DNA of 64,000 nt from NCBI GenBank assembly GCA_963732095.1, contig CAVSZA010000022.1, positions 117,167-181,166 on the forward strand. Reading direction: 5' to 3'. Every line of letters begins with the position of its first letter. Within the stretch, counting starts at the first letter, position 1. Below, piece after piece: positions 1 through 64,000 of the stretch. The notes under the pieces are model-generated. The model was not told where the DNA came from, did not search any database, and saw only the letters and a program-made list of their open reading frames with translations. The DNA is from an uncultured Alphaproteobacteria bacterium. GTDB taxonomy: Bacteria; Pseudomonadota; Alphaproteobacteria; ATCC43930; CGMCC-115725. The position numbers and the translations under genes were made by a program.

Positions 1-954
1 CTGCGTTTCCTTGAAGTTCGCCCAGATCCAGATGTCGTCGGGCACGAACATCGTAAGGTTTGCACCCGGCTGCGCGTACTGGCCGACAGCGGCGCTGAGC
101 TGAACGACGCGGCCCGGCTGGTCTGCCGTAACCGTGGTATAGGAAAGGTTGAGCTGCGCCTGTTCGCGCTGCGCTTTGGCTTGCGCCAGGCTGGCGACGG
201 CGCTGGCGCGTTGGGCCCTCAGCGCCTCGACTTGCCGCTGCGCCAGTTTGAGGGTCGCTTGCGCACTGTCGACTGCGGCCTGCTGCTGATTCAGCTGTGA
301 GGTGTATTTCTGGGCGTTTTGAACGGTGCCGGCGAGTTGTGTCTGCGCCAGGTCTTGATAGCGCACCGCTTGCTGCTGCGCGAACACCAGCGCCGCCTGC
401 TGCTGCGCCAGCTGTGCCTGGTCGGCGGTGATCTGGGCCTGCTGCACACTCATCTGCGCATCGACATTGTTGATGCTGGCTCGCGCGGCGGCGACCTGCG
501 CCACCGCCTGGGCGAGGGCTGCGCGATAAGTCCGGTCGTCGATACGGGCGATGATCCGGCCGGTGGCGACGTGCTCGTTATCGGTTACCGGGACCGCCGT
601 GATGTAGCCCGACACTTCGGGGGCGATGGCGAATTGCCGCGACGCTATGTAGGCGTCGTCGGTGGCCTCGAAATGACAGGAATTGTCCCAATAAAGGTAG
701 CCGCCCGTTGCTACCAGCAGCAGGCAAACCGTCGTGAGGGCGAAGACAGCCGGGCGCAGACTATTCCTGCCTTTGCGTGACAGCTCATCAGCATCGGGCT
801 CGTGGGTTTCAACATCCGCATCCTTCCGGGGCCACCGCTCCAGCACCTTCGGCGCCGCACCGTCAGGCCACGCACCATGGTCCGCCCCCGGCTCAAATTG
901 CGCGGTTTCCGCCGCGCTTCGAGCGTCCGCTCTCTGATCTTCCAGGTCCAGCAT
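1..954 (-). CDS. HlyD/EmrA-family efflux membrane-fusion protein; 3' end lies outside the window
   Basis: Absent from the ORF track because it runs off the left edge. The reverse frame is open from ATG (cat at 952-954) to position 1. My translation: MLDLEDQRADARS...LRPAVFALTTVCLLLVATGGYLYW (one TM anchor), then HFEATDDAYIASRQFAIAPEVSGYITAVPVTDNEHVATGRIIARIDD (lipoyl-like motif of EmrA/HlyD adaptors), then a long Ala/Gln coiled coil. Divergent from a LysR gene. The listed + ORF 319..780 is its shadow. Confidence 0.8.
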   Translation of the reverse strand, partial: MLDLEDQRADARSAAETAQFEPGADHGAWPDGAAPKVLERWPRKDADVETHEPDADELSRKGRNSLRPAVFALTTVCLLLVATGGYLYWDNSCHFEATDDAYIASRQFAIAPEVSGYITAVPVTDNEHVATGRIIARIDDRTYRAALAQAVAQVAAARASINNVDAQMSVQQAQITADQAQLAQQQAALVFAQQQAVRYQDLAQTQLAGTVQNAQKYTSQLNQQQAAVDSAQATLKLAQRQVEALRAQRASAVASLAQAKAQREQAQLNLSYTTVTADQPGRVVQLSAAVGQYAQPGANLTMFVPDDIWIWANFKETQ

Positions 955-1068
955 CGTCCTCGCCCTTGCGATCTGCTTTCGCGGACCGAAATGAGTAGCG
1001 ATCGACGGAAGACAATTGCTCCTTTTGCGAACAGGCTGTCCGATATCTGCAAACAATAGGAGGGCGGG

Positions 1069-1986
1069 ATGGACCGTTTCGCCAGCATGACGACCTTCGT
1101 AAGGGTTGCCGAAGGCGGCGGGTTCTCGGCGGCTGGCCGCCGCCTAAACCTGTCAAAGGCGACGGTCAGCGACCATGTTCAGGCGCTGGAAAACGCGCTC
1201 GGGGTGCGGCTGTTAAAGCGCACCACCCGCCGGGTCAGTTTGACCGAGATCGGCCGCAGCTATTACGAGCGCTGCGTGCAAATCCTGCACGACCTGGAGG
1301 AAGCCGATGAGATCGCCGACGCCCAACAGGCAACCCCGCGCGGCCAGCTCCGCGTTCACTGCCAACATGGCGTCGTGCAGTTCGTTACACCGGTCGTCGT
1401 CGACTTTCTCGCCCGCTACCCTGAAGCGTCGATCGATCTGCGCTCCGGTCACGCGATGATCGATATGGTAGAGGAGGCGTTCGACCTAGCAATCAGCGCG
1501 TTTCCGCCGCCCGATGCGACCCTTGTCAGACGGCGCTTGGCGACATTCAGCCTGGTGCTATGTGGCGCCCCGGCCTATCTCGAACGACATCCGGCGCCGC
1601 AATCCCCAGCAGACCTCGCTGGTCACAACTGCCTGCGCTACCCATACGCGCCGGAGTTCACGGAGGGGTGGCACTTCCTGGACGCCAGTGGCAATCCGGT
1701 TGTGGTGCGCGTATCGGGAAACCTGATCAGCGGCAGCCCAGATACAGGGCGCGCCGCTGCGGTAGCCGGCATCGGCCTGGTGCTGACGGCGCCGTTCATG
1801 GTTGCCGATTTGCTTGCCTCAGGGGCGCTGGTGCCGCTGCTGCCCAGTTATCGAACGCAGGAGTTTGAGATCGATGCGTTCTATCCTCATCGCCGGCACT
1901 TGAGCGCCAAGGTACGCGCGTTCATCGACATGCTGGTCACCTGGTTCGTCGAACACGAGCACCAACTCAAACCAAGCGGAAGCTAA
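1069..1986 (+). CDS. LysR-family transcriptional regulator
   Basis: N-terminus MDRFASMTTFVRVAEGGGFSAAGRRLNLSKATVSDHVQALENALGVRLLKRTTRRVSLTEIG is the canonical LysR wHTH. About 300 aa with a substrate-binding domain. Divergent from the efflux adaptor gene. Confidence 0.9.
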   Translation: MDRFASMTTFVRVAEGGGFSAAGRRLNLSKATVSDHVQALENALGVRLLKRTTRRVSLTEIGRSYYERCVQILHDLEEADEIADAQQATPRGQLRVHCQHGVVQFVTPVVVDFLARYPEASIDLRSGHAMIDMVEEAFDLAISAFPPPDATLVRRRLATFSLVLCGAPAYLERHPAPQSPADLAGHNCLRYPYAPEFTEGWHFLDASGNPVVVRVSGNLISGSPDTGRAAAVAGIGLVLTAPFMVADLLASGALVPLLPSYRTQEFEIDAFYPHRRHLSAKVRAFIDMLVTWFVEHEHQLKPSGS

Positions 1987-2187
1987 AGGCTACTCTGGGG
2001 TAAGCGACGCCCGAGGCGAGGGTCTGCAGTGGGGCATTAGCGCCCGAAGTCGAACGGCCTGCGCGAGTGACCGCTTCGGGGTCGACAGCCGACCAAAGCG
2101 CTTGCCATCGATTCTGGCGCGCCGCTCATTCGCGATCAGCCCACCGCCGTCTATAAGCGCACCTCCGACGAGCACGGAAGGCTCGGT

Positions 2188-2745
2188 ATGGAGCGCCAAC
2201 GCTTTACTCCACTGCAGCGCCTGCTGCATTGGCTCATGGCGCTCTGCATCTTGGCGATGCTGTTCATCGGCGTCGCCATGGTGTCGACTGTCAAGCCGAA
2301 GCATCTGACGCTTGTTTCGATCCACAAACCGCTCGGTATCGCAATTCTGGTGCTCGCGCTGGTCCGGCTGGCGGTGCGCCCGCGCTATCGCAGCCGCCGC
2401 TGCCGGCCGACCTGTCCGAACCGATGAAGCTCGCGGCCAAGCTGTCCCATTACGCGCTCTACGCCCTGATGATCGGCATGCCGCTCCTCGGCTGGGGGGA
2501 TGCTGTCGGCGGCCTCCTACCCGGTCGTGCTGTTTGGGGGCGTGCACCTTCCAGCGATCCTGCCGTAGAGCGACGGCCTGCATACACTGCTGTGGAATGC
2601 GCACTTCTACGTTGGTTTCGTGTTCTTTGCGCTGATCCTGCTGCATGTCGCGGCGGCGCTCTTCCACGCGCTCGTGAGGCGCGACGGGGTATTCGACGCA
2701 ATGGCGCCGGTGCCGGCTCACGACGAGGTCGCGCCCGCGCAGTGA
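2188..2745 (+). pseudogene. cytochrome b561 (CybB/YceJ-like), disrupted by two frameshifts and one in-frame stop
   Basis: Three pieces reassemble a full b561. Frame 1: MERQRFTPLQRLLHWLMALCILAMLFIGVAM...HKPLGIAILVLALVRLAVRPRY. Frame 3: QPPLPADLSEPMKLAAKLSHYALYALMIGMPLLGW. Frame 1 again: MLSAASYPVVLFGGVHLPAILP-TAG-SDGLHTLLWNAHFYVGFVFFALILLHVAAALFHALVRRDGVFDAM. Lesions: -1 near 2389-2391, +1 in the G6 run 2494-2499, TAG at 2566-2568. Confidence 0.75.
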
Positions 2746-2920
2746 CTGGCCGTTCCGGGGTTTTGACTGCAGAGTGAGGCAGTTTCGGGAGCGCAGCGCG
2801 CTGGACCGCGTCGCAATTAACCTTGAATTTTATTCGCTTAACGATCAATTCAATGCGGAAATTAACTTTTCGAGGCTAGGCTCATCCATCGACAAAATGG
2901 TTTAACTACAGGAGTTTGAA

Positions 2921-3079
2921 ATGAAGGCCCTGACCTCGTTGCTGAGAGACGAACGCGGCGTTACGGCCATCGAATACAGCTTGATCGCGGCGTTGATTGC
3001 AGTCGCAGCCATTGGCTCGTTTACATTGATCGGCACGACTATCAGCACCACCTTCAGCACTGTCGCCAGCAAGCTGTAG
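2921..3079 (+). CDS. flp: Flp/Fap-family type IVb pilin (52 aa)
   Basis: Below the ORF-track size cutoff. AGGAG at 2910-2914, ATG 2921, TAG 3077-3079. Translation MKALTSLLRDERGVTAIEYSLIAALIAVAAIGSFTLIGTTISTTFSTVASKL carries the Flp signature (G-x-TAIEY-x-LIAALIAV) and a hydrophobic core. Confidence 0.8.
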   Translation: MKALTSLLRDERGVTAIEYSLIAALIAVAAIGSFTLIGTTISTTFSTVASKL

Positions 3080-3534
3080 CCGCCAATTCGCAGCCGGCGC
3101 CCACACCGAATTGTCCGAGGTCTCCACCGGATAGACCACGCCGACCAATACGGAGCCGGCGCTTCCAATCCTGGTGCGTCGCAGTTCACAGCGTCGCGGT
3201 CGCGACGGCCTCCTTTCAGGGGATTGCCCGTCGTACCAAGCGCAAGCTCGAAGCGAGCGACGCGACGAGCAGCCAGACCCGTTACGATCTGAAGGATGGC
3301 GCGCCGGCATTTGCCGCCGGAAGAGGCCGATCGAATCAAGGCGCAACGGGCGGCGTAGTCGCCCGCGAGACCGGAACCTGCTCGAATACTTCTGCGGGCT
3401 GACCAACGGGTGGTGCGCCGATTACGGCCGCCACGGCGCCGCGACCGAATCCTCGAGCCTCGCTACCGTGCCCAGCCCGCAGACCGTTTTCGCGGAAAGA
3501 GGAACGGTCTAATATAACATGGCGAGGGTCCAGC

Positions 3535-5998
3535 ATGCGCCGGTCGCCAGACTTAGGGAGGAATAGGCCCGCTATGGCCGTTGCCGCTAGCGAGGTTGGC
3601 GAAACTGAAAAGATCGCAGCTTCTGTCGAAGCCAAGGTTAACCAACAAAGCTCACCGGAATTCGATATCCGATCGGCACTGGAAGCCGGAGAGATTGGCG
3701 TTTGGGATTGGGACCTCACAAAGGATCGCATGTGCTGGTCCGAGCAAATGTTCCGCAATATGGCGCTGGATCTGGGTCGGAGCGGCGATCTTTATCAGCG
3801 TCTTCTAGCGGCGATACATCCGACTGATCGAAAGAGCGTCGCGGCGGCGTTTGCGGAATTCCGCAAATGTCCGGGTCCTATGCGGGTCGAAGCCAGGCTC
3901 GTTTGGCCCGGCGACGAACCGCATTGGATCGTGTTTCTCGGGCGAACGGAACCCGGAGCGGATGGGGCGCCGACGCGCATGCACGGCATCACGATCGACA
4001 GCACCCGGCGCCGCAAGAACGAGGAGACGAGCGCGGCGGCATTGTCCGAAAGCGGGCGCCGGCTGAGCGAGTTGAACACCAGACTGGAGCAGCTTGCCGA
4101 GCGCCAACAGCGTCAGCTCGGCGCCAGCCGCGCGCAGATTCAAGCGATCTTCGACAATTCGCCGGATTGGCTGACGCTGTTTCGCGCCACCGCCGATGGC
4201 CGCTTTGTGTACGTGGATCTCAATCGTGCAACCGAGCGTGCCTATGGTCTCGGTTACGAGCAGGTCGTCGGCCGCACCGTCGAAGAAATCCTCGGTCCCC
4301 AGCAGGCTGAACTGCCGCTCCGCCTGATGCGGGCCTGCATCCATAGCGGTGAAAATCAACGCTATACGGCGCGGCGGACGATGGCCGGCGTAACCCGGTC
4401 GATCGACGTCATGTTTGTGCGCGTCCCCGAGCAGCTGGACGGCGATTACCACATCATGGCCACAGCCCGGGACATCACCGAGCGTGACGAAATAGAGGAG
4501 CGCCTGCGCCGCGAAAGGCTGCTCTTCGAGCTGATCATCGAAAATACGTCGGAAGGCATAATCGTCGTCGACAACCAAATGCGGCACTTGGTGTGGAACG
4601 CCGCTATCGAACATATCAACGGCCAGCCTCGCAGCGCTGTGCTGGGGAAGACCGTCTTCGAGATATTCCCACAATTCTCCGATCATCCCGTCGGGCATGC
4701 CTGGCATGAGGCGCTGACGGGACGTCGGGCGGAGATGCGCGACTATCGGTTTTTCTCGGAAACGCGCCGCGCCGAAATCATCTACGACGCCGATTTCACG
4801 CCGCTCTACGACCAGCGCGGCTCGATCATTGGGGCGATCTGCATATTGCGCGAGACAACCGAGCGCCACCGGATGGAGCATCTGTCGAAGCTGGAGACCG
4901 TCGCCCAGCTTACCGGCGGTGTCGCCCACGATTTCAATAATCTGCTGACGGCGGCCATGGGCTGCCTCGAGATGATTCTCCGCGGCGGCAAGAGTGAACG
5001 CATCGCTTCTCTGGCTGAGATGGCGCTTCGATCGCTAAACCGCGGAGTGCAGTTGACCCAGCAGCTTCTCGCGTTCGCGCGGCGCCAGACGCTGCGCCCG
5101 GTTTCGGCAGACCTAAATGCATTGCTGACAGAGATCGAGGTCCTGATCCGTCGCGCGGTCGGCGAGACAATCGATGTCGTCATCGACGTCGCGCCCGAGC
5201 TGCCCCGCTGCGAAGTCGATCCGGCCCAATTCGAAGCTGCCGTGATGAACCTCGTCATCAACGCGCGGGACGCCATGCCGGAAAGCGGTCGCGTCAAGAC
5301 TCACTATCCGCAAGGTCGAGACGGGACAGATCCCGGCAGATATCGACCTTCGCTCGGGCGATTACGTCGCGTTCGCGGTCGAGGACAACGGCGAAGGAAT
5401 GAGACCGGAGGTCGCGGCTCGCGCGTTCGAGCCGTTCTATACGACCAAGGAGATCGGCAAGGGATCTGGGCTCGGTTTGTCAATGGTGTACGGTTTTGCC
5501 AAACAATCGGGTGGCGGGGTTCACATCGAAAGCGCAGTTGGCAGGGGCACGTCTGTGACCCTCTATCTACCGACCGCTTCATTCACCGCAGAAAACGCCC
5601 AGCGGAACCGCGCGCCGGATGAGCCGCGGCAAGGTGCAGGCTCGATCCTCGTCGTCGAGGATGACGCTCAGGTTCGTGACGTGTCGGTCGAAATTCTCCA
5701 AGACCTCGGGTATCGCACATTGGTGGCTCGAAACGGCCAGGAAGCGCTCGAAGCGTTGCTGCGCCACGACCGGATCGACCTGTTGTTTACCGACTTGGTC
5801 ATGCCGGGCGGCATGTCGGGGGTCGCACTCGCGCGACAGGCGCAGGTGATACGCCCCGGCTTGCGCGTCCTGGTGACGACCGGTTATGCCGGGCTGGAAG
5901 CCGCCGCCACCGATGATTTCCCGATCATCGCAAAACCGTTCCGCTCGGCGGAGCTGAGCCTCGCCATTGCCCGGCTGATCGGTCATAGCCCTGATTAG
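3535..5998 (+). pseudogene. multi-PAS hybrid sensor histidine kinase/response regulator, split by one frameshift in the ATPase domain
   Basis: ORF 3535..5622 carries PAS repeats, HisKA (VAQLTGGVAHDFNNLLT) and the N-box (AVMNLVINARDAMPESGRV), then degenerates. ORF 5399..5998 in another frame continues correctly: LTIRKVETGQIPADIDLRSGDYVAFAVEDNGEGMRPEVAARAFEPFYTTKEIGKGSGLGLSMVYGF, then the REC domain (ILVVEDD...DLLFTDLVMPGGMSG...KPF). One extra base near 5296-5300. Confidence 0.8.
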
Positions 5999-9116: not shown

Positions 9117-9193
9117 GGCGAGCCCAATCCCACCGCGGTATTCCGAGCTGCGAGCGGGTTCTGGCGAGTAGGGAGAGTTGCGGAGGTATTGCA

Positions 9194-9925: not shown

Positions 9926-9936
9926 GCTTTCGGGGC

Positions 9937-10620
9937 ATGCTGCTCCGCGTCCGCTCCATTGTCTATCTGGCCCAACGAATCAACGGCTACGAGCTGGTGG
10001 ACCCGGACGAACGCGATCTGCCCGGGTTCTCGGCCGGGGCGCATGTCTCGGTGCGGGTCGGCCACGGGCCGGTGCGCGACTTCTCGCTGCACAACGATCC
10101 CACCGAACGCGCGCGCTATTGCATCGCTGTGCTGCGAGAGCCGGAAGGGCAGGGATCCCGCGAATGGCATGAGCAGGTGCGCGTCGGCGAAATCGTCGAG
10201 GCTTCGGTGCCGCGCAACAATTTCCCGCTGGCCGCCGAGGCGGAGCACCATCTGCTGATCGCCGGCGGTATCGGCATCACGCCGATCATGTCGATGGTCG
10301 CGGAATTGCGCCGGCGCCGCGCCGATTTCCGTCTGCATTACTGCACCCGTTCGCCCGAGGAGACGGCGTTCCTCGACGATCTCGCGATCCTCGCCGCGCT
10401 GGGGTGGGTGCAGTTCCACCACGACGGCGGCGACCCGGCCAAGGGGCTCGATCTCGCCGCGACATTGCGCGAATACCGCGCCGGCACTCACCTCTATTAC
10501 TGCGGCCCAGCCGGCATGATGGCGGCAGCCGAAGCGGCTGCAAGACATTGGCCGGTCGGAACGGTCCACTGCGAGTATTTTGCGGGACCAAAGGCAGTGC
10601 CGCCAATTCTTGGAAAGTAA
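9937..10620 (+). CDS. PDR/VanB-family oxidoreductase, FAD/NAD(P) domains only; C-terminal [2Fe-2S] domain appears to be missing
   Basis: The listed 459-aa ORF 9241..10620 is only credible from ATG 9937 (MLLRVRSIVYLAQRINGYELV...). Motifs: AGAHVSVRVGHGPVRDFSLHNDP..RYCIAVLRE, HLLIAGGIGITPIMSMV, LYYCGPAGMM, VHCEYF. The protein stops about 10 aa after VHCEYF, where family members continue into a ferredoxin domain. The stop lies 2 bp from the convergent dctA stop. Confidence 0.65.
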   Translation: MLLRVRSIVYLAQRINGYELVDPDERDLPGFSAGAHVSVRVGHGPVRDFSLHNDPTERARYCIAVLREPEGQGSREWHEQVRVGEIVEASVPRNNFPLAAEAEHHLLIAGGIGITPIMSMVAELRRRRADFRLHYCTRSPEETAFLDDLAILAALGWVQFHHDGGDPAKGLDLAATLREYRAGTHLYYCGPAGMMAAAEAAARHWPVGTVHCEYFAGPKAVPPILGK

Positions 10621-10622
10621 AG

Positions 10623-11927: not shown

Positions 11928-11941
11928 GGTTTAGCGCTGTC

Positions 11942-12880: not shown

Positions 12881-12942
12881 GACGCACTCCTCAAACGAAC
12901 CTCAACGAAGCCACATCGCACCGGCCGTCGCAATCATTAACA

Positions 12943-16585: not shown

Positions 16586-16644
16586 GAAGATCGCACCCGC
16601 GCTCGGCGCAAATTGGCCGTGTCATTGCGAGGCGCGCCTTCGCG

Positions 16645-18925: not shown

Positions 18926-18936
18926 GGGGAAGCCGC

Positions 18937-20413
18937 ATGGCCGACGATATCGCTTTTATGCCGGCGACTCACCTGCTCGCCCTTTACCGAAGCAGGCAGC
19001 TGTCGCCCGTCCAAGTCATCGAGCACACATTGCGCCGGCTCGAGACTTATGAAAGCGCGATCAATGCCTTCGTCCTCTATGATCCAGAGACGGCTTTGGC
19101 AATGGCTCGGGCGTCCGAGGCGCGCTGGCAAAGGGGCGAGCCGCAGGGTTTACTCGACGGTGTGCCGGTCGCGCTGAAGGACACGCTGCTGACCCGAGGC
19201 TGGCCCCGTCTGTTGGGCTCGCGCACCATCGATCCCAGCCAGGCTTGGGACGAGGACGCGCCGGTGCCCGGCCGGCTCCGGGCCAACGGCGCGGTGTTCT
19301 TCGGCAAGACGACGACCCCCGAATTCGGCTGGAAAGGGGTCACCGATTCGCCGCTCAGCGGGGTCACCCGCAACCCGTGGAACCTGGAACGAACCCCAGG
19401 CGGCAGCAGCGGGGGCAGTGCCGCCGCGGTTCTGGCCGGCATCGGTCCTCTCGCGGTCGGCACCGACGCCGGCGGCTCGATCCGCATCCCGGCGTCATTC
19501 TGCGGTATTGTCGGCCATAAGCCGACCTTCGGGCGCGTGGCGGCGTATCCGCCCTCGGCCTTTGGTGACGTCGCGCATGTCGGGCCGATGACGCGCAGCG
19601 TCGGCGATGCGGCGCTGATGCTCGACGCAATAAAGGGGCCCGACTCGCGCGACTGGCACAGTCTGCCCGATGACGGGATCGCTTATCGCGAACGCGTCCG
19701 CGAAGGCTCGATCAAGGGCAGGCGTGTCGCGCTGTCGCCGACCCTCGGCTACGCCGAGCCTGCGCCGGCGGTCCGCGCGGCGGTCGAGCGCGCCGCCGAG
19801 ACCTTCGCCGAATTGGGTGCGGTCGTCGAGGAGTTCGGATCCCTTCTCGGAATCGCCGATGCCGATTTTCCAGTCACTCGCCCTCGGCGGTTTCTGGGCG
19901 TTGCTGCGCGCGCAGAAGCCCGAAGCCGTGGCGCTGATGGACCCCGGTCTCGTCGAAATGTGCCGGCGCGGCGAGGCCGTGACCCAGGAGCAATATGTCG
20001 AGGCGGTCGCACAGCGTGTGGCGCTGGGCCAAAGGCTGCGGCTGTTCTTCGATCGTTACGATCTGCTGCTGTCCCCGACCATGCCGATCCCCGCGGCCTA
20101 TGCCGACCCGCGCGCCGACGAGTTGCCGAATCCGGGAAATGCGTGGAGCTGGGTCACCTATACCTACGTCTTCAACTTGACCAAGAACCCGTCCTGCTCG
20201 ATTCCGTGCGGTTTTGCCGATGGGCTGCCGATCGGGCTGATGGTGACGGGCCCGCTATATGACGACCTTGGTGTGCTGCGGGCCTGTCGGGCCTATGAAG
20301 AAGCTGCCGGCGCCGTTTGGCCGAGTCCGGAACTGAGCGGGTGCCTCGACAAGATCGCCCGCCCGGCCGACACTGCGGTCAAGGCCAAGATACCGGCAAG
20401 CCGGAGCTTATGA
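18937..20413 (+). pseudogene. amidase (amidase-signature family), one frameshift
   Basis: From ATG 18937: MADDIAFMPATHLLALYRSRQLSPVQV..., AS signature GGSSGGSAAAVLAGIGPLAVGTDAGGSIRIPASFCG. Sense ends after AELGAVVEEF. The C-terminal third continues in ORF 19670..20413 (DPFSESPMPIFQSLALGGFWALL...LLSPTMPIPA...NLTKNPSCSIPCGFADGLPIGLMVTGP). One extra base near 19834-19838. Confidence 0.8.
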
Positions 20414-24713: not shown

Positions 24714-26414
24714 TCAGAAGAGCCCCGTAATGCGGCCCTCCGCATCAACCGCGATATTATTTGCGGCCGGCACCTGCGGCAGGCCCGGCAAAGTCATGAT
24801 ATCGCCGCAGATTACGACCACGAACTCCGCGCCGGCCGACAGTCGCAATTCCCGCACTGTCAGAGTATGGTCGCTGGGTGCGCCTTTGGCGTTGGGATCG
24901 GTCGTAAAGCTGAACTGGGTTTTGGCGATGCACACGGGAAAATGGCCGAAGCCCTGGTCTTCCAACTGTTTGAATTGGTCGCGGACCGTCTGGCCGGCCT
25001 CGATGTCGCTGGCGCCGTAGATGCGCTGGGCAATCGTGCGGACCTTTTCCAAAAGCGGCATTTCGTTCGGATACAGAAAACGGAGTTTTGCCGTGCCGCT
25101 CTCGGCGAGAGCAACGACGGCACGGGCCAGCTCGACCGCTCCCTCTCCACCCTGGGCCCAATGGTCGGCGACGATCGCCTCGACACCCTCGCGCGCGCAG
25201 AGCTGCTTCAGCAGGTCGAGTTCCGCCGTGGTGTCGGCGCTGAAGCGATTGACCGAGACGACCGCCGGCACGCCAAACTGACGCAAGTTCCGCAAGTGAC
25301 GGGCGAGGTTGGCAAATCCGCCTTCCAGCGCCCCGAGGTTTTCCTGCCGCAAAGCGTCGCGAGCGACGCCCCCGTGCATTTTCAAGGCCCGCACGGTCGC
25401 CACGACGACGGCGGCGTCCGGCCTCAACCCGGCCTTGCGGCATTTGATGTCGAAGAATTTTTCGGCTCCAAGATCCGCGCCGAACCCCGCCTCGGTGACG
25501 ACGTAATCCGCGAGCTTCAACGCCGCGGTCGTCGCAATCACCGAATTGCAGCCATGCGCGATGTTGGCGAATGGGCCGCCATGGATGAAAACCGGGTTGT
25601 TCTCGATCGTCTGCACCAAGTTGGGCGCGAGCGCATCCTTCAGTAAGGCTGCCATCGACCCGGCCGCTTTGATATCGGCGGCCTGTACCGCCTTGCGCTC
25701 CCGCGTCTGGCCGACGACGATGTTGCCGAGCCGCCGCTGCAGGTCCTGAAGATCGGTCGCCATGCAAAACGTCGCCATCACTTGCGAGGCGGCGGTGATG
25801 TCGAAACCGTCCTCGCGCGGATAGCCGTTGGCGACGCCCCCCAGGGAGGAGACGACCGAGCGCAGCGCACGGTCGTTCATGTCTATCGCGCGACGCCAGC
25901 TGACCCGGCGCGGGTCAATACGGGGTTCGAGCCCATAATAGATGTGGTTGTCAACCATTGCCGCGAGCAGGTTGTTGGCCGCTCCGATCGCGTGCAGGTC
26001 GCCAGTGAAGTGCAGGTTGATATCCTCCATCGGCACGACCTGCGCGTAGCCGCCGCCCGCCGCGCCGCCCTTGACGCCGAAGCAGGGACCCATGCTTGCC
26101 TCGCGGAGGCAGAGCACGGCTTTTTTGCCGATCAGGTTAAGCGCGTCGCCGAGTCCGACAGTCGTTGTAGTCTTACCTTCGCCGGCCGGCGTCGGAGTGA
26201 TCGCCGTGATGAGGATCAGCTTGGCAGGCCGATCGGGAAGCGAGCGAATGTAGTCGAGTTAAATCTTCGCCTTGTATTTGCCATAAGGCGAGACCGCATC
26301 ATCCGGGATCCCCAGCTTTTCCGCGGCGATGGCGCCGATCGGCCGCATCGTCGCGGCCTGAGCTATCTCGATGTTGGATTTCGGGTTTTTGTGTTGCTCG
26401 GCTCCGCGCGCCAC
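24714..26414 (-). pseudogene. fhs: formate--tetrahydrofolate ligase, otherwise full length, with one in-frame TAA
   Basis: GAAGGAGA, 6 nt, then GTG 26414. [54 protein letters not shown](26259-26261)[87 protein letters not shown]... runs in the same frame to 24714. Family members have Ser at this position (KAKISLD); TCA to TAA is one substitution. Confidence 0.85.
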
Positions 26415-26578: not shown

Positions 26579-27028
26579 ATGATTGACACAAAGACTGGCC
26601 GAGCCGCCGGTTTCGGCGCCGCGGCAATGATTGCCGCGCTCGGCCTCGCTGCCGCCGTTTCAGCCCCCACCCCAGCCGAGGCTCGAGTGTTCATCGGCTT
26701 CGGCTTTGGTTTTCCGATAGGGTTTCCGTTCTATTATCCTCCCTACCCCTATTATCCGCCGCCGGCTTATTACCCGCCGCCACCCTACGACCTCGGCCCG
26801 GCGTCCTATCCGGCGCCCGGGACACCATCTCAGCCGTCAGCCGGCTATGCGCCCTCCGGACTTGCCGGGAGCCCCTCGATCACCTAAACGCCGCGGCGCG
26901 GCTGGACGAACGCGCAGGGACAATATTGCCGGGAGTACCGGACCACCGGGCCGGGGGGCAATCGTGCGACCGAGCGTTACGGAACCGCCTGCCGGGACGC
27001 GAGCGGCCAATGGCGGATTGGTAACTGA
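26579..27028 (+). pseudogene. secreted Pro/Tyr-rich protein with conserved Cys-motif C-terminus, interrupted by an in-frame TAA
   Basis: ORF 26579..26887 has a signal peptide (AAMIAALGLAAAVSAPTPAEA), then FGFGFPIGFPFYYPPYPYYPPPAYYPPPPYDLGP.... Past TAA 26885-26887 the same frame reads TPRRGWTNAQGQYCREYRTTGPGGNRATERYGTACRDASGQWRIGN-TGA (27026-27028). The C-R-E-Y...Y-G-T-A-C-R..G.W pattern is a C-terminal motif I recall from small rhizobial surface proteins. This is recollection, not a search. Confidence 0.55.
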
Positions 27029-29593: not shown

Positions 29594-29636
29594 GTCAATT
29601 CATGGGTTTTCCTCGGATGAGTACATCTGCAACAAG

Positions 29637-29649
29637 GACATAGATACAC
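29637..29649. repeat. 13-bp direct repeat GACATAGATACAC, left copy
   Basis: Exact match to 30494-30506. The two copies bracket the truncated transposase gene, and the bases on both sides of each copy differ. Confidence 0.9.
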
Positions 29650-29656
29650 TCTTCAT

Positions 29657-30481
29657 TTGGGTTTCGACCTCGCCAACACGGTCTATGCGCTCGACTCGAC
29701 GACCATCGATCTTTGCTTGGCGGTCTTTCCGTGGGCGCATTTCCGCACGACCAAGGCGGCGGTCAAGATGCACACGCTATTGGACTTACGCGGTAATATC
29801 CCGAGCTTCATCCACGTCTCGGATGGCAAGCTGCACGACGTTCACGCGCTCGACTTGCTGCTCCCAGAGGCGGGCGCGATATACGTCATGGATCGCGGCT
29901 ATGTCGATTTCGCCCGACTCCATGTGCTGCACCTGGCCGGAGCCTTCTTCGTCACCCGCGCCAAATCGAACATGGATGCCCATCGGGTCTATTCGGCCCC
30001 GACTGACCGTACGACCGGCATCATCTGCGATCAGGCCATCGCTTTGGACGGTCACTATACCAGCCAGCATTACCCCGAACGCCTCCGGCGCATCCGCTTC
30101 CGGGACGCCGAAACGGGAAAGAGACTGGTGTTCCTCACCAACCAGTTCGGCTTGCCGGCCACGACGATCTGCGCGCTCTACAAAGGCCGCTGGCAGGTCG
30201 AGCTGTTCTTCAAATGGATCAAACAGCACTTGCGGATCAAACGCTTCTTCGGGACATCCGAAAATGCCGTGAAGACGCAAATCTGGATCGCCGTCTCAGT
30301 CTACGTCCTCGTCGCCATTATCAAGAAGCGGCTCGCCCTGGACGCCTCGCTCTACACATTGCTACAGATCCTCTCGGTCACCCTCTTCGAGAAAATCCCG
30401 ATACATCAAGCACTTGCTCGCGACAATTTCAGATGCGATACTTTGCAAATAACTAACCAATTGAATCTATTCGCTTATTGA
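29657..30481 (+). mobile_element. IS4-family (DDE) transposase gene fragment, 5'-truncated
   Basis: 274 aa: LGFDLANTVYALDSTTIDLCLAVFPWAHFRTTKAAVKMHTLLDLRGNIPSFIHVSDGKLHDV...YVMDRGYVDFARL...FFVTRAKSN...YKGRWQVELFFKWIKQHLRIKRFFGTSENAVKTQIWIAVSVYVL. Full-length relatives carry roughly 100 more N-terminal residues. Here the frame opens only at 29621 with no credible start, and I could identify no terminal inverted repeats. Local GC is visibly lower. Confidence 0.8.
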
Positions 30482-38760: not shown

Positions 38761-39046
38761 ATGGACCGCGGCAAAGCCATTGCCAAGCTCAAGCAGCACG
38801 AAGCCGAGTTGAAGCGGCTCGGCGTCGAGCACCTCTACTTGTTCGGCTCGACCGCGCGGCGCGTGAAGACTCGGATATTGACCTCTTCTTTGTCATCCTG
38901 ACCGGTCTCTCGGACTTTTCGAGTTGATGGATGTAAAAGAGGCCGCCGCTCGCATTCTTGGGCGAAAAACCGATATCATGACGCGGCGCAGCTTGCATCC
39001 GGTTCTCCGCGAGCGAATCGAGGCCTCGGCGCTGCAAGTGTTCTGA
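38761..39046 (+). pseudogene. MNT-type nucleotidyltransferase antitoxin, two frameshifts
   Basis: Frame a: MDRGKAIAKLKQHEAELKRLGVEHLYLFGSTAR. Frame b: AAREDSDIDLFFV (the GS...D.D nucleotidyltransferase motif). Frame c: ELMDVKEAAARILGRKTDIMTRRSLHPVLRERIEASALQVF-TGA. Shifts near 38850-38860 and 38915-38921. Confidence 0.7.
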
Positions 39047-39380
39047 TGGCGATGCCGCCTCAGATCGCACGGCTGACGGACATCATCGAGGCCGTCGAGC
39101 TGATCCGCAGCGAAATGGTAGGCGTGACGCTCCAGACCTTCGAACCTGACAAGCGCAAGCGGTGGCTCGTCGAGCGCGGCGTTGAAATTATCTCAGAGGC
39201 CAGCCGGCATCTGAGTGACGAGCTAAAAGAAAGGCATCCGGAAATTCCATAGTCGAAGGTCGCGGGGAGCGGCAACGTGCTGCGGCACGAATACGAGCGC
39301 ATTACTACGACGTGTTGTGGCGCGTTATGCGTGACGACTTACCGCCCCGCAATACGCCAACATCGCTTGTTCGGCCATGA
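39046..39380 (+). pseudogene. HepT/DUF86-type toxin, in-frame TAG plus one frameshift
   Basis: TGATG overlap with the MNT gene. MAMPPQIARLTDIIEAVELIRSEMVGVTLQTFEPDKRKRWLVERGVEIISEASRHLSDELKERHPEIP-TAG(39250-39252)-SKVAGSGNVLRHEYERI, then with one base restored near 39303-39304, DYDVLWRVMRDDLPP.... Family members read HPEIPW (TGG to TAG) and carry the RxxxxHxY motif (NVLRHEY). Confidence 0.7.
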
Positions 39381-44855: not shown

Positions 44856-45701
44856 ATGAGCACCGCGATCCGCCCTCTCGTTCTCGTGGTCGGTGCATCC
44901 GGCAAGTTCGCCGGCCACGTTGTCCCCGCTGTCGCGCAGCGGGGCGTACGCGTCCGCGGCATGGTTCGCAAACCGGAGGAACAAGCCGATGTGCGTGGGC
45001 GCGGTGCTGACGAATTAGTCGTCGCGGATCTTACGGAGCTGTCGAGCCTGAAGCGCGCCTTCGAGGACGTCGAGCGCGTATTCTAGATCGCCCCTGCCTT
45101 CATGCCGAATGAGGCGGATGTCGGTTGCCGCTTCGTCAAGGCCGCCGCCGAGGCCGGAATAAAGCGGATCGTCTTTTCCTCGGTGGTCCACCCGGTGGTC
45201 GCAGGCCTAACAAACCACATCGCCAAGGCGCCGGTCGAGGAAGCGATCCTCGACAGCGGCATCGAATACACGTTCCTCCACGCCGCGCTTTATTTCCAGA
45301 ATTTCTCCGCGGGCTGGAACGAGGTGGTGCGGACCGGTGTGCTTGCCGAGCCATGGTCATGCGACACGCGCTTCAGCCGGGTCGACTACCGGGATGTGGC
45401 CGAGGTCGCGGCGATCGCGCTCACCGAGGACTGCCTGCTCTACGGCACCTTCGAACTCGCCGCCGACGGCTGGCTCGATCGTCACGAGGTGGCGGCGCTG
45501 ATCGGCGCGGCGCTAGGCCGCGACATTCGCGCCGAGCGGATCGACCCGGCGACGCGTGGCGACGCGCCGCCGCCGATGCAGGCTATGTTCGCGCACTACG
45601 ACCGGGTCGGCCTAAGGGCCAATCCGCTTGTGCTCCGCACCGTCCTCGGCCGCGAGCCCCGCACGCTCGCCGACTTCTTTCAGGAACTCGCGGCGGCATG
45701 A
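44856..45701 (+). pseudogene. NmrA-family NAD(P)-binding protein with one in-frame TAG
   Basis: MSTAIRPLVLVVGASGKFAGHVVPAVAQRGVRVRGMVRKPEEQ...AFEDVERVF-TAG(45084-45086)-IAPAFMPNEADVGCRFVKAAAEAGIKRIVFSSVVHP... is one continuous frame (both ORF-track pieces 44856..45086 and 45102..45701 share it). Relatives have Tyr here (VFYIAP). Confidence 0.75.
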
Positions 45702-45719
45702 GCTGAACGGAGCAATGAC

Positions 45720-46815
45720 ATGACCGACCTGTTCACACCGATGGATCTGCATGGTCTTCGCCTCCCCAACCGCATCTGGATGTCGGCGATGACGCGCACG
45801 CGCGCCAGCGACGACAACGCGCCGACACCGCTGATGGCCGACTATTACGCCCAGCGCGCCGACGCCGGCCTCATCGTGACCGAGTGCACGGCGGTCTCCG
45901 AGCAGGGCAAGGGCACCATCAACGGCCCCGGCATCTGGCGGCAGGACCAGATCGCGGGCTGGCGGAGGATTACGGACGCGGTCCATGCCGCGGGCGGCCG
46001 CATTTATTGCCAGCTCTGGCACTGCGGCCGCGTTGCGCATCCTGACATGCGCGGCGGTGCATTGCCGGTCGCGCCATCGCCGCTGCCGGCCCAGGGCAGG
46101 TTCAAGTTCCCAGATCGGGAGGTAGATTTCCCCGTGCCGCGGGAGCTCACAGCCGACGAGATCCCGGCTATCATCGACGATTTCGCGAGAGCGACACGCA
46201 ATGCTCGCAACGCCGGATTCGATGGGGTCGAGCTGCATGGCGCCAATGGCTATCTTCATGACAGTTTCTGCAGGATGTCAGCAACCAACGCACTGATGAC
46301 TGGGGCGGCTCGATCGAGAAGCGCGCGCGGCTGATGCTGGAAACGGTCGATGTTATGATCGCTGCCTGGTCGGCGGAGCGGGTTGGGGTGCGACTCGGTC
46401 CCTCGATCTCGCTGTACGGCATGGGTGACAGCATCCCTTCGCCACCTTCGGCCATGTCGTGCGCGAGCTCGACCGCCGGCGCATCGGCTGCCTCACCATG
46501 CTCGAACCCAACAAGGACGATCTGGAGAAGGGCGTCGCGATCGAGAAGGTCGCGAAGACGTTCCGACCAATGACCTCGGCGCCATTCATCGCCAACACGG
46601 GTTTCAACAAGGATAGCGGCAATCAGGCGATCGAGGGCGGTGAGGCCGACGCCGTCGCCTATGGGGTGCTCTTCCTTGCCAATCCCGACCTTACCGAACG
46701 GTTCTGGCGCGATGCCCGGATGAACGAGCCCGATCCCGCTACCTTCTACGGTCGCGGACCGAAGGGCTATATCGATTATCCCGCGCTTCCTGGTCAGAAG
46801 GCGAGCGTCGGTTAA
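45720..46815 (+). pseudogene. Old Yellow Enzyme-family NADH:flavin oxidoreductase (NemA-like), two frameshifts
   Basis: Frame 0: MTDLFTPMDLHGLRLPNRIWMSAMTRTRA...LIVTECTAVS...GFDGVELHGANGYLHD. Frame 2: FLQDVSNQRTDDWGGSIEKRARLMLETVDVMIAAWSAERVGVRLGPS...GMGDS. Frame 1: DPFATFGHVVRELDRRRIGCLTMLEP...ADAVAYGVLFLANPDLTERF.... Single-base losses near 46261-46264 and 46430-46433. Confidence 0.8.
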
Positions 46816-56444: not shown

Positions 56445-58027
56445 CTACGCACCCTTGATCGTAATGTCCTCGAAGGGCGCCGTATAGGCAAAGCCTGCGA
56501 TCAAGCCGAAAGCAGATTCGCCGACCCGTGGGCCGACGCCGTTGAGAAAGCCGAGCTGCCAGATCGGCGCGTAGATCGACTTCTCGTAGACCAGCTGCTG
56601 CATTTTATCGAGGATTGCCGCGCGCTTCTCGTGATCGATCTCGCCGGCCTGCTGCGGGAAGAGCTCGTCAATGTCGGGATAGCTGCCGTAGGCATAGGCG
56701 CCACCCTTGACGACGAACGAGGCGAGTTGGGTCGCGGCATTGCCGAAGGCGCCGCTCGCTCCTTGTATGATTCCCCGCGTGTACTTCTTGTCGGCATAGC
56801 CCGCGAAGAAGCCGGCGCGCTCGATTGGTTGGAGCTGGGTGCGGATGCCGATCTGCTGGAGGTTGTCGACCGAGACTTCGGCCATGTTCGAGTACGAACT
56901 ATCGCAATACAAAAGTCCGGCGTCGAAACCGTTCGCAAAGCCCGCCTCCGCCAATAATTTTTTCGCCTTGCCGGGATCGTACACGGCGGCCGGCGGCTGC
57001 CAGTAATAGTCGAAAGTGTAAGGAATGACGCTGTTGGTGATTTTACAGTAGCCGAGGAACAATGCTTGGCTCATTCCCTCGCGGTCGATAGCGAGATTGG
57101 CGGCTTGCCGAACCTGCAGTTTGTTCCACGGCGATTTCGGGTCCCATTGCTCAGGGAAGTAGAGCCAATTCGGCGCCTGCAGGACCACGGGCTTGAGGGC
57201 GAGGCCGGGCGTGCGACGGAGCTCCTCAGCGAGTTCGCTGCGGATCGAATAGGCGATATCCACCTCGCCGCGCTTGAGGGCGGCAAGCCGCGTCGCCTCG
57301 TCCGGGATCACCTTCATGACGAGGCGCTTTACGCTGGGAGTCTTGCGCCAATAGTCGTCGAAGGCTTCGAGAACCAGCTCAACGCCGGGCGTGAACGAGA
57401 TAAATTTGTAGGGGCCGGCGCCGATCGGCGCCTTTTTGAAGCCCTCGTCCCCGACCTGCTCAACATATTTCTCGGCACGATCCAGCCGGAGCCGGAAGCG
57501 GTCGAATAAAAGGTGATGAAGTCCGGCCACGGCTTCTTCAGCTTGAAGCGGACATGCTGCGGGTCGGGTGTCTCGATCGCCGCCACATTGTCCTTCATCA
57601 GCTGATGTGCTGCGCCGTGGTAGCGCTCGAAAGAGAACTTTACATCTTCGGCGGTTACCGGCTCGCCATTGTGAAACTTCACCCCCTTGCGCAACACGAA
57701 ATCATAGCCGAGCCCGTCCGGCGACGCCGACCACGACTTGGCGAGGCACGGCGTCTGGGTTTTGCCGGGCATCGGCTTCACCATTGCGTCGTGCAGCGCG
57801 TACAGCACCATGTAGGGGGTAATAAGCGCTTCCGTCTCGGCAGGGTCGAACCAGGTCGGCGCCAAGGAGACGTGGATCGCCCAGGTCAATTCGCCAGTCG
57901 GCGCGGCGGCCCATGCGATCCCGGGAGCGCTGCTTGCAAAGCCGAGGGCCGTTAACGCGAGAACGTCCCGACGCGTCAGATCAGTTTGCTTCGAAATGCC
58001 GTTTCGCGTGCTGCCGCGCGACCCCAT
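56445..58027 (-). pseudogene. ABC substrate-binding protein, family 5 (DppA/OppA-like), copy 1, one frameshift
   Basis: GGAGGAGG upstream of ATG 58027 (MGSRGSTRNGISKQTDLTRRDVLALTALGFASSAPGIAWA, Tat-like). Sense runs to ...GSGWIVP, then continues in ORF 56445..57530 as KYVEQVGDEGFKKAPIGAGPYKF.... Compared with the paralogue's ATATTTCTTGGGCACGA, one base is missing at 57471-57475. Confidence 0.8.
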
Positions 58028-58125
58028 CGAACCTCCTCCACATCGCGGCCTCTTTAGCGAGCCTTGCTCCGAACCTAGACGACCACTTCGAAAATGTCTC
58101 CACGATTCTAGCGAGATGAGACGGG

Positions 58126-59673: not shown

Positions 59674-59769
59674 AGCCTCCTCCATTCAGCCGGCCCTATT
59701 TTCGAGCCTTGCACATAAGGTAGGCCAGCAATGCGCCAATGTCACGGCTCTAGCAAGAAGCCCCTGGCG

Positions 59770-61362: not shown

Positions 61363-61499
61363 CTCCTCCTCCAACGCAGACGCCCCTTAGTGCTGGGCTT
61401 GTCCCGACTTTAGACCAGCTTTTGAACGAGTGTCTCCCGCATTCTTCCAGCCTATGGCAATGGCTCGTAAACCCAGATTTGGATCGCTATTTTCGCGAG

Positions 61500-61908: not shown

Positions 61909-62009
61909 CATTACCAATTCTCGGTAATTAGCCGCGACCCCACCGGCTTCGCGCGAGCCAGCAAATTGGGCTAGGACGCCGCGAGTGCATTACTGCAGGG
62001 GAGGGCCTC

Positions 62010-62835
62010 ATGACGACCGACCGCATGGAGCATCCGATCGTCCACTTCGTCGGCAGCATCTCGTTGCCGGACGCCGAAGCCGTGTTCCGCACGCTCGCCG
62101 AAGCGGTTGGGCCCTATCTGCTGCGCTTGCCCGACGGCGAGACCGGCATCCGCAAGACCTGGATCCGCTTTTTGCAGCAGGTTCTTGCCGAAAACCCGGC
62201 GATCGAGGTCGCCACCGACGTGCCGCCCTTCAAATTCACGCAATGGGACGGCAAGGTACTGCGCGAAATCCCGCGGCTGCGCATCAAGCCGGCGCCAAGC
62301 CCGATCCCAGCACGTTCAAGCGGCTGCAGACAGCCGCTGTCATTCCCGCGAATGTGAAGTTCCAGGTCTCGCTACCGACGCCGATCGCGCCAACCTACAA
62401 CAACATGGTGCCGGCGGACCGGCCGATGCTGTTGCCCGCGCTCACGGAGCACCTCATCGGCGAGGTCGAGAAGATCGCTAGAGCAATCCCCAATTATCGC
62501 CTCGCCGTGCAATGGGATGTGAGCCAGGAAGCTATGGCAGCCCCGCCGACGAGCACGTCGTTCAGCCCAAAAACATGGGCATCATGGTCGAGATGGCCAA
62601 TGCGATCGGCGGCAGGGTCAAGCCTCCGATCCAATTCTTTCATATGCCGGTGCCCAAGAGCGGGACCGATGACGGCTATTCCGCGCCGCTCGAAAATCTG
62701 CGCCTGGGCGCGGAGACTGCGCTTTACCTAGGCCTCATCCATCACGACGACGCGCGAGGCGATGCGGCGCGGCTGCCCTCGCTCCCAGCGGCACACGTTG
62801 ACGGCCCAACTCGCTGCTTAGACGCAGCTGCTGAT
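62010..62835 (+). pseudogene. hypothetical protein gene broken by at least two frameshifts; 3' end uncertain
   Basis: GGGGAGGG then ATG 62010. Sense passes through three frames: MTTDRMEHPIVHFVGSISLPDAEAVFRTLAEAVGPYLLRLPDGETGIRKTWIRFLQQVLAENPAIEVATDVPPFKFTQWDGKVLREIPRLRIKP, then AKPDPSTFKRLQTAAVIPANVKFQVSLPTPIAPTYNNMVPADRPMLLPALTEHLIGEVEKIARAIPNYRLAVQWDVSQE, then YGSPADEHVVQPKNMGIMVEMANAIGGRVKPPIQFFHMPVPKSGTDDGYSAPLENLRLGAETALYLGLIHHDD. Shifts near 62288-62292 and 62525-62540. Confidence 0.55.
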
Positions 62836-64000
62836 TACTCGAACAGTGGAAGGCGCGTCTGGGCGAATTCCTCCACTGCTTCGACGAGCTTGTCGTGGTC
62901 GGTTTCGTCGAGGGCGATGGAGAGGGCGAACATGCCGCGTTTGGCGAACCAGATGCCACGCGCGAGGAGGTCGAAATAGAAGAGGTCGCGCAATGTGCCA
63001 TTGCCGCGTTCAGCGTCTTCCTGTGAGCGGATCGGACCATCGGTCATGTGCACTGCGATCATCGAGCCGAGCCCGGTGAACTGCATTGCAAGCCGATGTC
63101 GGTGTGCCACTGCATTGAGCCGCTCGCGCAAGTGATCGCCCGCGGCATTGAGGGCACGGGCGCGCTCGGGTGTGTAGATCTCGGTCAGACCGACGAGCCC
63201 GGCATTCATCGTCAGCACATTGTTGTTGAAGGTGCCGGCGTGCTGGAAGGCGTCGGGCCGACGCGGGTCGAAGCGCTCCATCAGATCGGCGCGCCCACCA
63301 AAAGCGCCAAAGCTCATGCCGCCGCCGACATATTTGCCCAATGTCGTCAGGTCGGCCAGGACGCCGTGAGCTTCCTGCAATCCGCCTGGCGCCAGGCGCG
63401 AGGTCATGACCTCGTCAAAGATCAACAGCGCCCCGCTTTCGCTTGCCAATGCCCGTAACCCGGCGAGAAACGAGCGCTCCGCCGGGATGCAGCCGGTGGT
63501 GCCCTGCATCGGCTCGATCAGGATCGCAGCGAGCTTGCCTCGGTGCGGCCGCACCAACGCCTCGACCGCATCGAGGTCGTTGTATTTTCCGAGCAGATAC
63601 TCGAAAGGCGCATTGAGCGCACTGCCATGGCCGCGGAAATAAAACACGCCGCCATGATACCCGCCCTTGAACACCAGGACCTTCGGCCGGCCGGTGATCG
63701 CCCGCGCCGCACTGACCGCCATCAGATTGGCCTCGGTTCCGGAATTGGTGAAGCGCACCAGTTCGATCGACGGGAAGCGCGCGCAGATTGCCGCGGCAAA
63801 GCGCGCCTCGGTCGCATTGTGCGCGCCAAAATTGAGGCCCTGATCGAGCGCCGCCTCGATCGCCCGCCGGATCGCTGGATGCGAATGGCCGAAGATCCCG
63901 GCGGTGAACTCACTGAGGAAATCGACATATTCGTGCCCGTCGATATCCCACAGCCGCGCTCCCTCGCCGCGCGCCATCGTCAACGGAAACGGATCGACAT
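62835..64000 (-). CDS. class-III (PLP) aminotransferase, glutamate-1-semialdehyde aminomutase-like; 5' end outside the window
   Basis: The frame stays open upstream of the listed Met to the window edge (...VDPFPLTMARGEGARLWDIDGHEYVDFLSEFTAGIFGHSHPAI...). FTNSGTEANLMAVSAARAITGR, LLIFDEVMTSR and LGKYVGGGMSFGAFGG (PLP-Lys region). Confidence 0.85.
   Translation of the reverse strand, partial: VDPFPLTMARGEGARLWDIDGHEYVDFLSEFTAGIFGHSHPAIRRAIEAALDQGLNFGAHNATEARFAAAICARFPSIELVRFTNSGTEANLMAVSAARAITGRPKVLVFKGGYHGGVFYFRGHGSALNAPFEYLLGKYNDLDAVEALVRPHRGKLAAILIEPMQGTTGCIPAERSFLAGLRALASESGALLIFDEVMTSRLAPGGLQEAHGVLADLTTLGKYVGGGMSFGAFGGRADLMERFDPRRPDAFQHAGTFNNNVLTMNAGLVGLTEIYTPERARALNAAGDHLRERLNAVAHRHRLAMQFTGLGSMIAVHMTDGPIRSQEDAERGNGTLRDLFYFDLLARGIWFAKRGMFALSIALDETDHDKLVEAVEEFAQTRLPLFE

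Follow-up and report, generated by a model that had tools for sequence, protein, structure and literature searches.

Broken genes in a 64-kb stretch of an uncultured alphaproteobacterium: accessory pseudogenes and probable consensus errors at GANTC sites

The interrupted genes in a stretch of contig CAVSZA010000022.1 (assembly GCA_963732095.1, uncultured Alphaproteobacteria bacterium; positions 117,167 to 181,166) were analysed, the whole stretch of 64,000 bases being referred to as the window (63% G+C, no N). They very likely belong to two unrelated classes, namely real accessory pseudogenes (class A) and consensus errors at methylation sites (class B). Class A comprises a cytochrome b561 gene, the MNT and HepT genes of a toxin-antitoxin pair, an NmrA-like gene, an OYE reductase, a degraded hypothetical gene starting at 62010 (the 62010 gene), a remnant of an outer-membrane efflux protein (OMF) and a truncated IS4 transposase, and class B probably consists of the single-base lesions in a hybrid histidine kinase, an amidase and the formate-tetrahydrofolate ligase gene fhs (Table 1). 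The lesions are present in the sequence, those of class A are shared with independent assemblies, and those of class B are private to this contig and linked to the motif GANTC. The genuinely broken fraction amounts to about 13% (8 of about 62 loci), all of it accessory and in a state of ordinary slow decay.

Table 1. Coordinates, strand and state of the features discussed, in window positions.
Feature	Position	Strand	Lesion or state	Reading
Cytochrome b561 pseudogene	2188..2745	+	frameshift near 2390; compensating frameshift in G6 run 2493-2498; TAG 2566-2568	real
Hybrid histidine kinase	3535..5998	+	extra A at 5295/5296, directly 5' of GACTC (5298-5302)	probable consensus error
DmmA-like_N/NAD_binding_1 reductase, 227 amino acids ('VanB-like')	9937..10620	+	intact by Pfam and six JGI orthologues	
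Amidase	18937..20413	+	extra T at 19834 within GAGTC (GAGT[T]C)	probable consensus error
fhs (formate-tetrahydrofolate ligase)	24714..26414	-	TAA 26259-26261; + strand G to A at the G of GAATC	probable consensus error
Pro/Tyr-rich small protein, CREY...YGTAC C-terminal domain	26579..27028	+	TAC to TAA 26885-26887	private, off GANTC
Outer-membrane efflux protein (OMF) remnant, 104 amino acids	29283..29594	-	Pfam OEP 11-75 of 187 only	
IS4-family transposase	29621..30481	+	about 60-70 N-terminal residues missing; DDE_Tnp_1 5-200 of 200	
MNT nucleotidyltransferase antitoxin pseudogene	38761..39046	+	two frameshifts	real
HepT toxin pseudogene	39046..39380	+	TAG 39250-39252; 1-base deletion at 39307	real
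NmrA-like pseudogene	44856..45701	+	TAG 45084-45086	real
OYE/N-ethylmaleimide reductase pseudogene	45720..46815	+	two -1 frameshifts, about 46265-46289 and 46432-46447	real
guaA	46938..48485	-	ORF open; PP-loop SGGVNS for SGGVDS via C to T at 47801 in GAGTC (47797-47801, codon 229)	
SBP_bac_5 binding-protein copy 1	56445..58027	-	GGG to GG at 57474	private, off GANTC
62010 hypothetical gene, degraded	62010..62979	+	1-base deletion at 62289; 45-, 121- and 78-base deletions	real

A first-pass annotation of the window had counted about 15 disrupted loci, or one in four, and had taken them for real pseudogenisation rather than assembly noise. These lesions were re-derived by six-frame translation, comparison with distant homologues and close sister loci, and Pfam, while the total of about 62 loci is our own count from the map of open reading frames (ORFs) and the sister annotations. 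Related contigs are labelled L082-L135 and one related protein P0339, and contigs at least 99.8% identical are called same-strain. Thirteen of the 15 loci were confirmed in the sequence, no more than 3 bases from the reported positions, but two dropped out. The VanB-like reductase, held to be truncated, has an orthologue of 227 amino acids in six Illumina-assembled relatives (L086-L091), with nothing missing, and the supposed DUF5666 remnant had no Pfam support even at E ≤ 10. The proportion of one in four is thus close for loci that are interrupted or remnant (13 of about 62) but not for the genuinely broken ones. Likewise, real pseudogenisation was borne out for six loci, whose lesions or fragments recur in independent assemblies, but not for fhs, the amidase and the kinase, where they are private and GANTC-linked. 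The number of lesions per gene was at least four in the 62010 gene, three in cytochrome b561, two each in MNT, HepT and OYE, and one each in the histidine kinase, the amidase, fhs, a Pro/Tyr-rich small protein and a binding protein (copy 1 of three). Lesions were clustered above a uniform process, with four falling within about 700 bases at MNT/HepT (P about 0.01, corrected for the number of windows). Moreover, a check of close relatives gave full-length orthologues for OYE, cytochrome b561, the amidase, fhs, the binding protein and the Pro/Tyr-rich protein, as the first pass had suggested looking for. Recoding of TAG and TAA by an alternative genetic code was rejected, as the stops are few, both codons are involved and the relatives have sense codons.

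The lesions or fragments of class A genes were matched in assemblies JGI 3300081506, 3300050821 and 3300076036, Logan ERR11275872 and ERR11718639, and ENA ERZ27253817. Exact copies of the fragment proteins were present in JGI/IMG, Logan or other ENA records for cytochrome b561 (79 amino acids, on four independent contigs), MNT (46 amino acids, in JGI), HepT (68 amino acids, on three JGI contigs), NmrA (199 amino acids) and OYE (204 amino acids), and on three JGI contigs for the 62010 gene (115 amino acids). At the DNA level, the lesions of the first five of these genes were reproduced by contigs 97.8-99.9% identical to the window and gapless across the lesions. For cytochrome b561, the two opposite frameshifts and the TAG were all found, and the repaired protein matched positions 1-177 of the 179 of Pfam Ni_hydr_CYTB, the gene being intact at 187 amino acids in close relatives. 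The whole pseudogene is spanned by L099, 99.87% identical over 1857-3376 with no gaps, and its first two lesions are covered by L100 (97.8%), gapless over 1327-2522. These two frameshifts (2385-2500) are of opposite sign and lie about 110 bases apart, with the frame restored downstream, and both are present in L100. Furthermore, the stop in NmrA sits between Pfam NmrA positions 4-74 and 83-262, and the alignment of OYE homologues moves from frame 3 to 2 to 1, in agreement with the two -1 shifts reported; OYE is intact at 365 amino acids in close relatives. The resulting splits of NmrA (76 + 199 amino acids) and OYE (204 + 118 amino acids) were repeated, beside intact guaA, on three independent contigs (JGI 3300050821, JGI 3300081506 and Logan ERR11718639). 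In the same region, L098 was gapless over 44323-48647 (4325 bases), with only 2 mismatches in the first 4159 bases (44323-48481).

The MNT protein was spread over three frames by its two shifts, and after repair it matched NTP_transf_2 positions 1-88 of 93. In HepT, the stop and the single shift were both found, the repaired protein matching HepT-like positions 1-112 of 120; the TAG apparently replaces a Trp codon, TGG being deduced from the HepT consensus. L134 was 99.86% identical to 36589-40722 and shares both HepT lesions, while L135 (97.8%) has the TAG and keeps the T at 39307. Therefore, the decay of HepT was stepwise, first by the TAG and then by the 1-base deletion. In JGI 3300050821, MNT beside HepT is still called as an 83-amino-acid NTP_transf_2 protein, and the decay of MNT may be later than that of HepT. 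The sole indel against L134 is an intergenic poly-T (38483-38490), T8 in the window and T7 in L134 at 38490, which is also the only indel in the 9.8 kb of same-strain comparison and may reflect either true variation in length or a homopolymer error.

For the 62010 gene, at least two shifts had been reported, and four losses were found against L083 (352 amino acids), while the alignments of L082 and L084 show that between 62531 and 62752 the window lacks about 200 bases. The OMF and IS4 scars appear to be real as well, judging from Pfam coverage and length comparison: the OMF match is confined to part of the OEP domain, and the transposase, reported as 5'-truncated, has 274-286 amino acids vs. 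317-345 in relatives at least 90% identical, its DDE domain being complete. No verified-real lesion was on a GANTC when the motif context of the lesions was inspected. Class A genes would be dispensable accessory genes that lost selection and gathered lesions one after another, which were then fixed in the natural population. The mutator phase or recent niche restriction put forward for this lineage is not needed, as strains 97.8-99.9% identical have the verified lesions in common and these arose stepwise. The verified lesions lie in accessory genes only, and the lesion in the core gene fhs is motif-linked and private.

The remaining five lesions gave a different picture, since look-ups of the fragment proteins found no other assembly with the lesion of the kinase, the amidase, fhs, the Pro/Tyr-rich protein or binding-protein copy 1. 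A single-base repair restored full length for all three private indels (kinase, amidase and binding-protein copy 1). In the histidine kinase, homologues can be followed in frame 1 as far as 5295 and in frame 2 from 5297 on, as expected from the +1 shift reported near 5298, and removal of one A gives an ORF of 820 amino acids. P0339, a kinase 97% identical, reads AMPESGRVRLTIRKVE across the site, as the repair predicts, and has a frameshift of its own further on. The +1 shift of the amidase near 19836 proved to be an extra T that is absent from L086. Its orthologue has 491 amino acids in L086 and L097, the length that the window amidase reaches without this T, and the 184-amino-acid C-terminal fragment was on this contig only. 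The in-frame TAA of fhs is present in the sequence, and its 459-amino-acid fragment was again on this contig only, the intact protein having 566 amino acids in relatives. L096, an Illumina-style contig of 97.7% nucleotide identity, has CAA at that codon, and Q52 was found in 10 of the 10 proteins of the 90% cluster that cover it, 9 of them at least 98% identical. At codon 52, L097 has TCG (Ser), L096 has CAA (Gln) and the window has TAA, while the residue is Ala or Ser across 117 relatives; the site is permissive and, from these sequences, appears to have changed several times. The kinase, amidase and fhs lesions were read as consensus errors because they are private, GANTC-linked and match the published nanopore error signature. 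As real lesions, the stop in fhs and the frameshifts in an amidase and a sensor kinase that are otherwise conserved would have been the most surprising ones. The first pass had argued that stop-creating substitutions are not what sequencing error usually leaves; this does not hold for the fhs TAA, which is GANTC-linked.

The other two private lesions are off GANTC. In the Pro/Tyr-rich protein, the reported TAA was confirmed and replaces a Tyr kept in 28 of 29 relatives among the matches listed; L096 has TAC, and the protein has about 149 amino acids in relatives, with a weak Pfam match to 17kDa_Anti_2 (E 0.003). In a metagenome scan its best relative was 92% identical, with no conspecific among the matches listed. 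The deletion in binding-protein copy 1, reported near 57473, is the sole indel in 3.3 kb against L083. The repaired protein has 527 amino acids, as in relatives, about 91% identical relatives span the site, and the 361-amino-acid fragment was on this contig only. This gene is one of three tandem SBP_bac_5 paralogues (about 73% nucleotide identity) at 56445-61374, upstream of one ABC permease/ATPase set, an arrangement kept in L083 and L084. For the Pro/Tyr-rich TAA and the binding-protein deletion, either class is conceivable.

In Alphaproteobacteria, the CcrM methyltransferase acts on GANTC. Against the same-strain contigs, the window differed at 1964, 45016 and 47801, each time at the initial G or final C of a GANTC in the contig compared, and the fhs stop at 26261, compared with L096 and the 10 cluster proteins, is likewise on a GANTC end; at all four positions the window reads AANTC or GANTT. 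GANTC ends held 3 of the 9 substitutions relative to 9.8 kb of same-strain JGI contigs, although such ends make up 0.35% of positions (P = 3e−6). Furthermore, 18 sites are GANTC in Illumina relatives but not in the window, and at 9 of them the window differs by G1>A or C5>T, vs. 0 of 11 in the reverse comparison (Fisher P = 0.005). The same GANTC-end signature was found in long-read sister contigs (6-7 of 26). About 18-25% of GANTC sites were affected (3 of 17 in the same-strain comparisons), which by extrapolation would give some 15-25 silent or missense changes of this type in the window, in core and accessory genes alike. According to published work, SNP errors of nanopore assemblies concentrate at methylated motifs, including GANTC in Alphaproteobacteria, and are fewer with methylation-aware models (PMC12710330; PMC12392509). 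In class B, CcrM-type N6-adenine methylation of GANTC would distort the nanopore signal, such that the flanking G would be miscalled as A (on the opposite strand, C as T) or an additional base would be called.

The genes guaA, lon, dctA and ligD had been described as intact, and their frames are indeed open, but all four carry GANTC-type base changes (lon 22545, dctA 11053, ligD 14666 and guaA 47801). The change in guaA alters the PP-loop, while the same-strain JGI contig L098 has D229, and SGGVDS was found 80 times in related loci; this missense change in a frame-intact core gene is a probable artefact. The concentration of lesions in accessory genes, another claim of the first pass, stands for the verified-real lesions but is not statistically demonstrable for the whole list, because about 2.5 lesions would be expected in guaA, guaB, rsmB and lon under uniformity. 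Across the window, GANTC is depleted (79 vs. about 215 expected from base composition), and AANTC (187) and GANTT (215) are over-represented (about 123 expected for each). The motif is reportedly under-represented in CcrM-bearing Alphaproteobacteria; its depletion would fit an alphaproteobacterium and proves nothing on methylation, and the excess of AANTC and GANTT fits a CcrM-methylating alphaproteobacterium with partial miscalling of the motif. Whole-window counts of GANTC vs. AANTC/GANTT against relatives were suggestive but confounded by differing regions, and the site-by-site directional test was used in their place.

The sister contigs of the ENA assemblies ERZ25039xxx bear Flye-style names ('contig_9942' and similar) and have their own, differing split genes. 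These included Lon (628 + 154 amino acids), MFS, ADH and LigD in L097 (ERZ25039553 contig_92243), binding proteins, TauD and an aminotransferase in L082, ABC and NMT1 genes in L084, and adenine deaminase in L095. L097 also had six private 1-base insertions over 6.6 kb aligned, while six JGI contigs of the same region had every gene intact and of equal length. The whole set of long-read assemblies (L097, L082, L084, L095 and the contig of P0339) seems to share one error profile. Sister long-read contigs also show AANTC or GANTT where the window has GANTC. The contig naming of the sister records matches that of the MFD-LR catalogue, which was assembled with Flye and one round of Medaka 1.8.0 and for which nanopore-associated errors at low coverage were noted. 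From the 'contig_N' sister records and these methods, we infer that the window probably comes from a long-read (nanopore/Flye-type) metagenome assembly, and the error pattern is a hint that GANTC is methylated in this uncultured lineage.

Such sister contigs, riddled with private 1-base insertions and split genes, and the single Medaka round behind similarly named contigs would be in line with all the lesions being assembly or sequencing noise of a low-coverage long-read metagenome-assembled genome (MAG), an idea first prompted by the split genes of the 'contig_N' loci. However, identical lesions and fragments occur, gapless, in JGI, Logan and MEGAHIT-style ENA contigs of other samples, and deletions of 45-121 bases and domain-level remnants are not base-calling errors. 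For six loci noise is refuted by the independent assemblies, and as an account of the whole list it is close to inconceivable.

The opposite account, in which every lesion is real, the private ones included, and a lineage under relaxed selection or hypermutation has had both core and accessory genes inactivated, was also considered. Genuine pseudogenes clearly stand in the same window, no private coding indel was found over about 9.8 kb of same-strain Illumina contigs, and the private changes lean from GC to AT and are nonsynonymous or nonsense, as unselected new mutations would be (7 GC to AT vs. one, at 2529, in the opposite direction). Yet the five mismatches with L134 all have G or C in the window, the GANTC signature is shown by other long-read contigs but not by Illumina relatives, guaA would lose the invariant Asp of its PP-loop, and the affected fhs codon is Q52 in every cluster protein that covers it. 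Moreover, we know of no mutational process that targets the G flanking the methylated A in GANTC, which counts against this account, and we regard it as very improbable. An account in which the private lesions are real minority alleles or strain variants, caught by the consensus of a mixed population, finds some room in a polymorphic species, as fhs K9R, Q244R and L377V segregate among 12 sequences and the last 150 bases of L098 may hold a divergent rsmB allele. It leaves unexplained the coincidence with GANTC ends and the change of an invariant catalytic residue, and was judged improbable.

Several observations weigh against the division into accessory pseudogenes and methylation-site errors. 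The platform of the window was deduced rather than taken from its own record, and the privacy of the kinase, amidase and fhs lesions was established on relatives 89-99% identical, below the same-strain level. Some of the AANTC/GANTT sites seen against relatives of 86-91% identity may be natural transitions. In addition, fhs D450N and P476T, the Pro/Tyr-rich TAA and the binding-protein deletion are private but off GANTC, and therefore a second process is needed, which could be real private mutation, another modified (methylation) motif or low-coverage noise.

Regarding the genomic setting, the window proteins were all on one contig of 241,157 bases recorded in NCBI and ENA. The nearest named relatives were Stellaceae or uncultured alphaproteobacterial MAGs, many members of the protein clusters being labelled Stellaceae, and the species recurs in several JGI, ENA and Logan metagenome samples. 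Only distant matches to the window were found in the plasmid collection; therefore, it was taken to be chromosomal alphaproteobacterial DNA. In a contig scan with GuaA, the best relatives among the matches listed were 81-83% identical and syntenic for guaA-rsmB-guaB only, and they served only for the mapping of frameshifts by distant homologues. Synteny with sister species (86-96% nucleotide identity) covered 1-1955, 9170-26500, 35.6-38.4 kb and 46.9-64 kb and was broken between these blocks, leaving non-syntenic accessory segments at about 2-9, 27.5-35.6 and 38.4-46.9 kb. All the real lesions lie within the latter, except those of the 62010 gene (syntenic block 46.9-64 kb).

Other features of the window were also observed. 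A histidinol-dehydrogenase-like gene (27960-29252) beside the OMF remnant and IS4 is the lone member of its 90% protein cluster, most of its neighbours having hundreds of close relatives, and it may be an accessory copy that was acquired recently or evolves fast. At about 52300, between the oligopeptide ABC ATPases and a glyoxalase gene, L082, L084 and L085 carry an extra cluster of an NMT1-type binding protein and an ABC transporter, which is absent from the window and L083. Finally, 27 of the 29 mismatches of L098 are packed in its last 150 bases (48482-48632, the 3' end of rsmB), a pattern that may come from recombination of the rsmB allele or from chimerism at the end of the contig.

Both phenomena, the decay of accessory pseudogenes and nanopore errors at methylation motifs, are already known. 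Their combination means that methylation-motif errors can make a count of broken genes in a long-read MAG look like dramatic genome decay. In the window, such errors also put missense changes into genes with open frames, such as in the catalytic loop of guaA; before pseudogenes are counted in long-read MAGs, methylation motifs need to be masked. Here, the two classes could be told apart without reads, through exact fragment proteins and gapless alignment with independent short-read contigs. There is nothing remarkable about the real pseudogenes, which are a dead MNT/HepT pair, redundant oxidoreductases and insertion sequence (IS) scars. That a density of about 13% holds genome-wide, which would be an unusually heavy pseudogene load for a free-living, widespread Stellaceae-like soil species, seems unlikely; if true, it would suggest that in this abundant soil lineage purifying selection is weak or accessory genes turn over rapidly.

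Compared with known systems, class A resembles the ordinary pseudogenes of flexible genomes (decaying toxin-antitoxin pairs, IS scars and redundant oxidoreductases) in having several independent lesions per gene, intact orthologues in sister species, IS remnants nearby, and lesions that are shared between strains and phylogenetically nested. A few percent of pseudogenes is typical of free-living bacteria, and the density in the window is higher, about 8 of 62 loci (13%), a figure from one accessory-rich 64-kb window that is not to be extrapolated to the genome. The high apparent fraction of frameshifts and nonsense changes in the window recalls the reductive evolution of Mycobacterium leprae, Sodalis and Yersinia pestis. 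Unlike in these, there is no IS expansion in the window, with one truncated IS4 only, and unlike in host-restricted reduction, the verified lesions are accessory only, the hit in the core gene fhs is probably artefactual and the organism occurs in several metagenome samples. As for class B, two of the motif-linked events are gene-breaking 1-base insertions, in which they differ from the known methylation errors of nanopore assemblies, and platform and methylation were deduced from the signature. In other respects class B is much like these known errors (PMC12710330; PMC12392509; Lohde et al. 2024, as cited in PMC12392509): it keeps to one short palindromic motif whose methylation is typical of Alphaproteobacteria, only part of the motif copies are hit, mostly by purine or pyrimidine transitions beside the modified base, and Illumina assemblies of the same or related strains do not show the signature.

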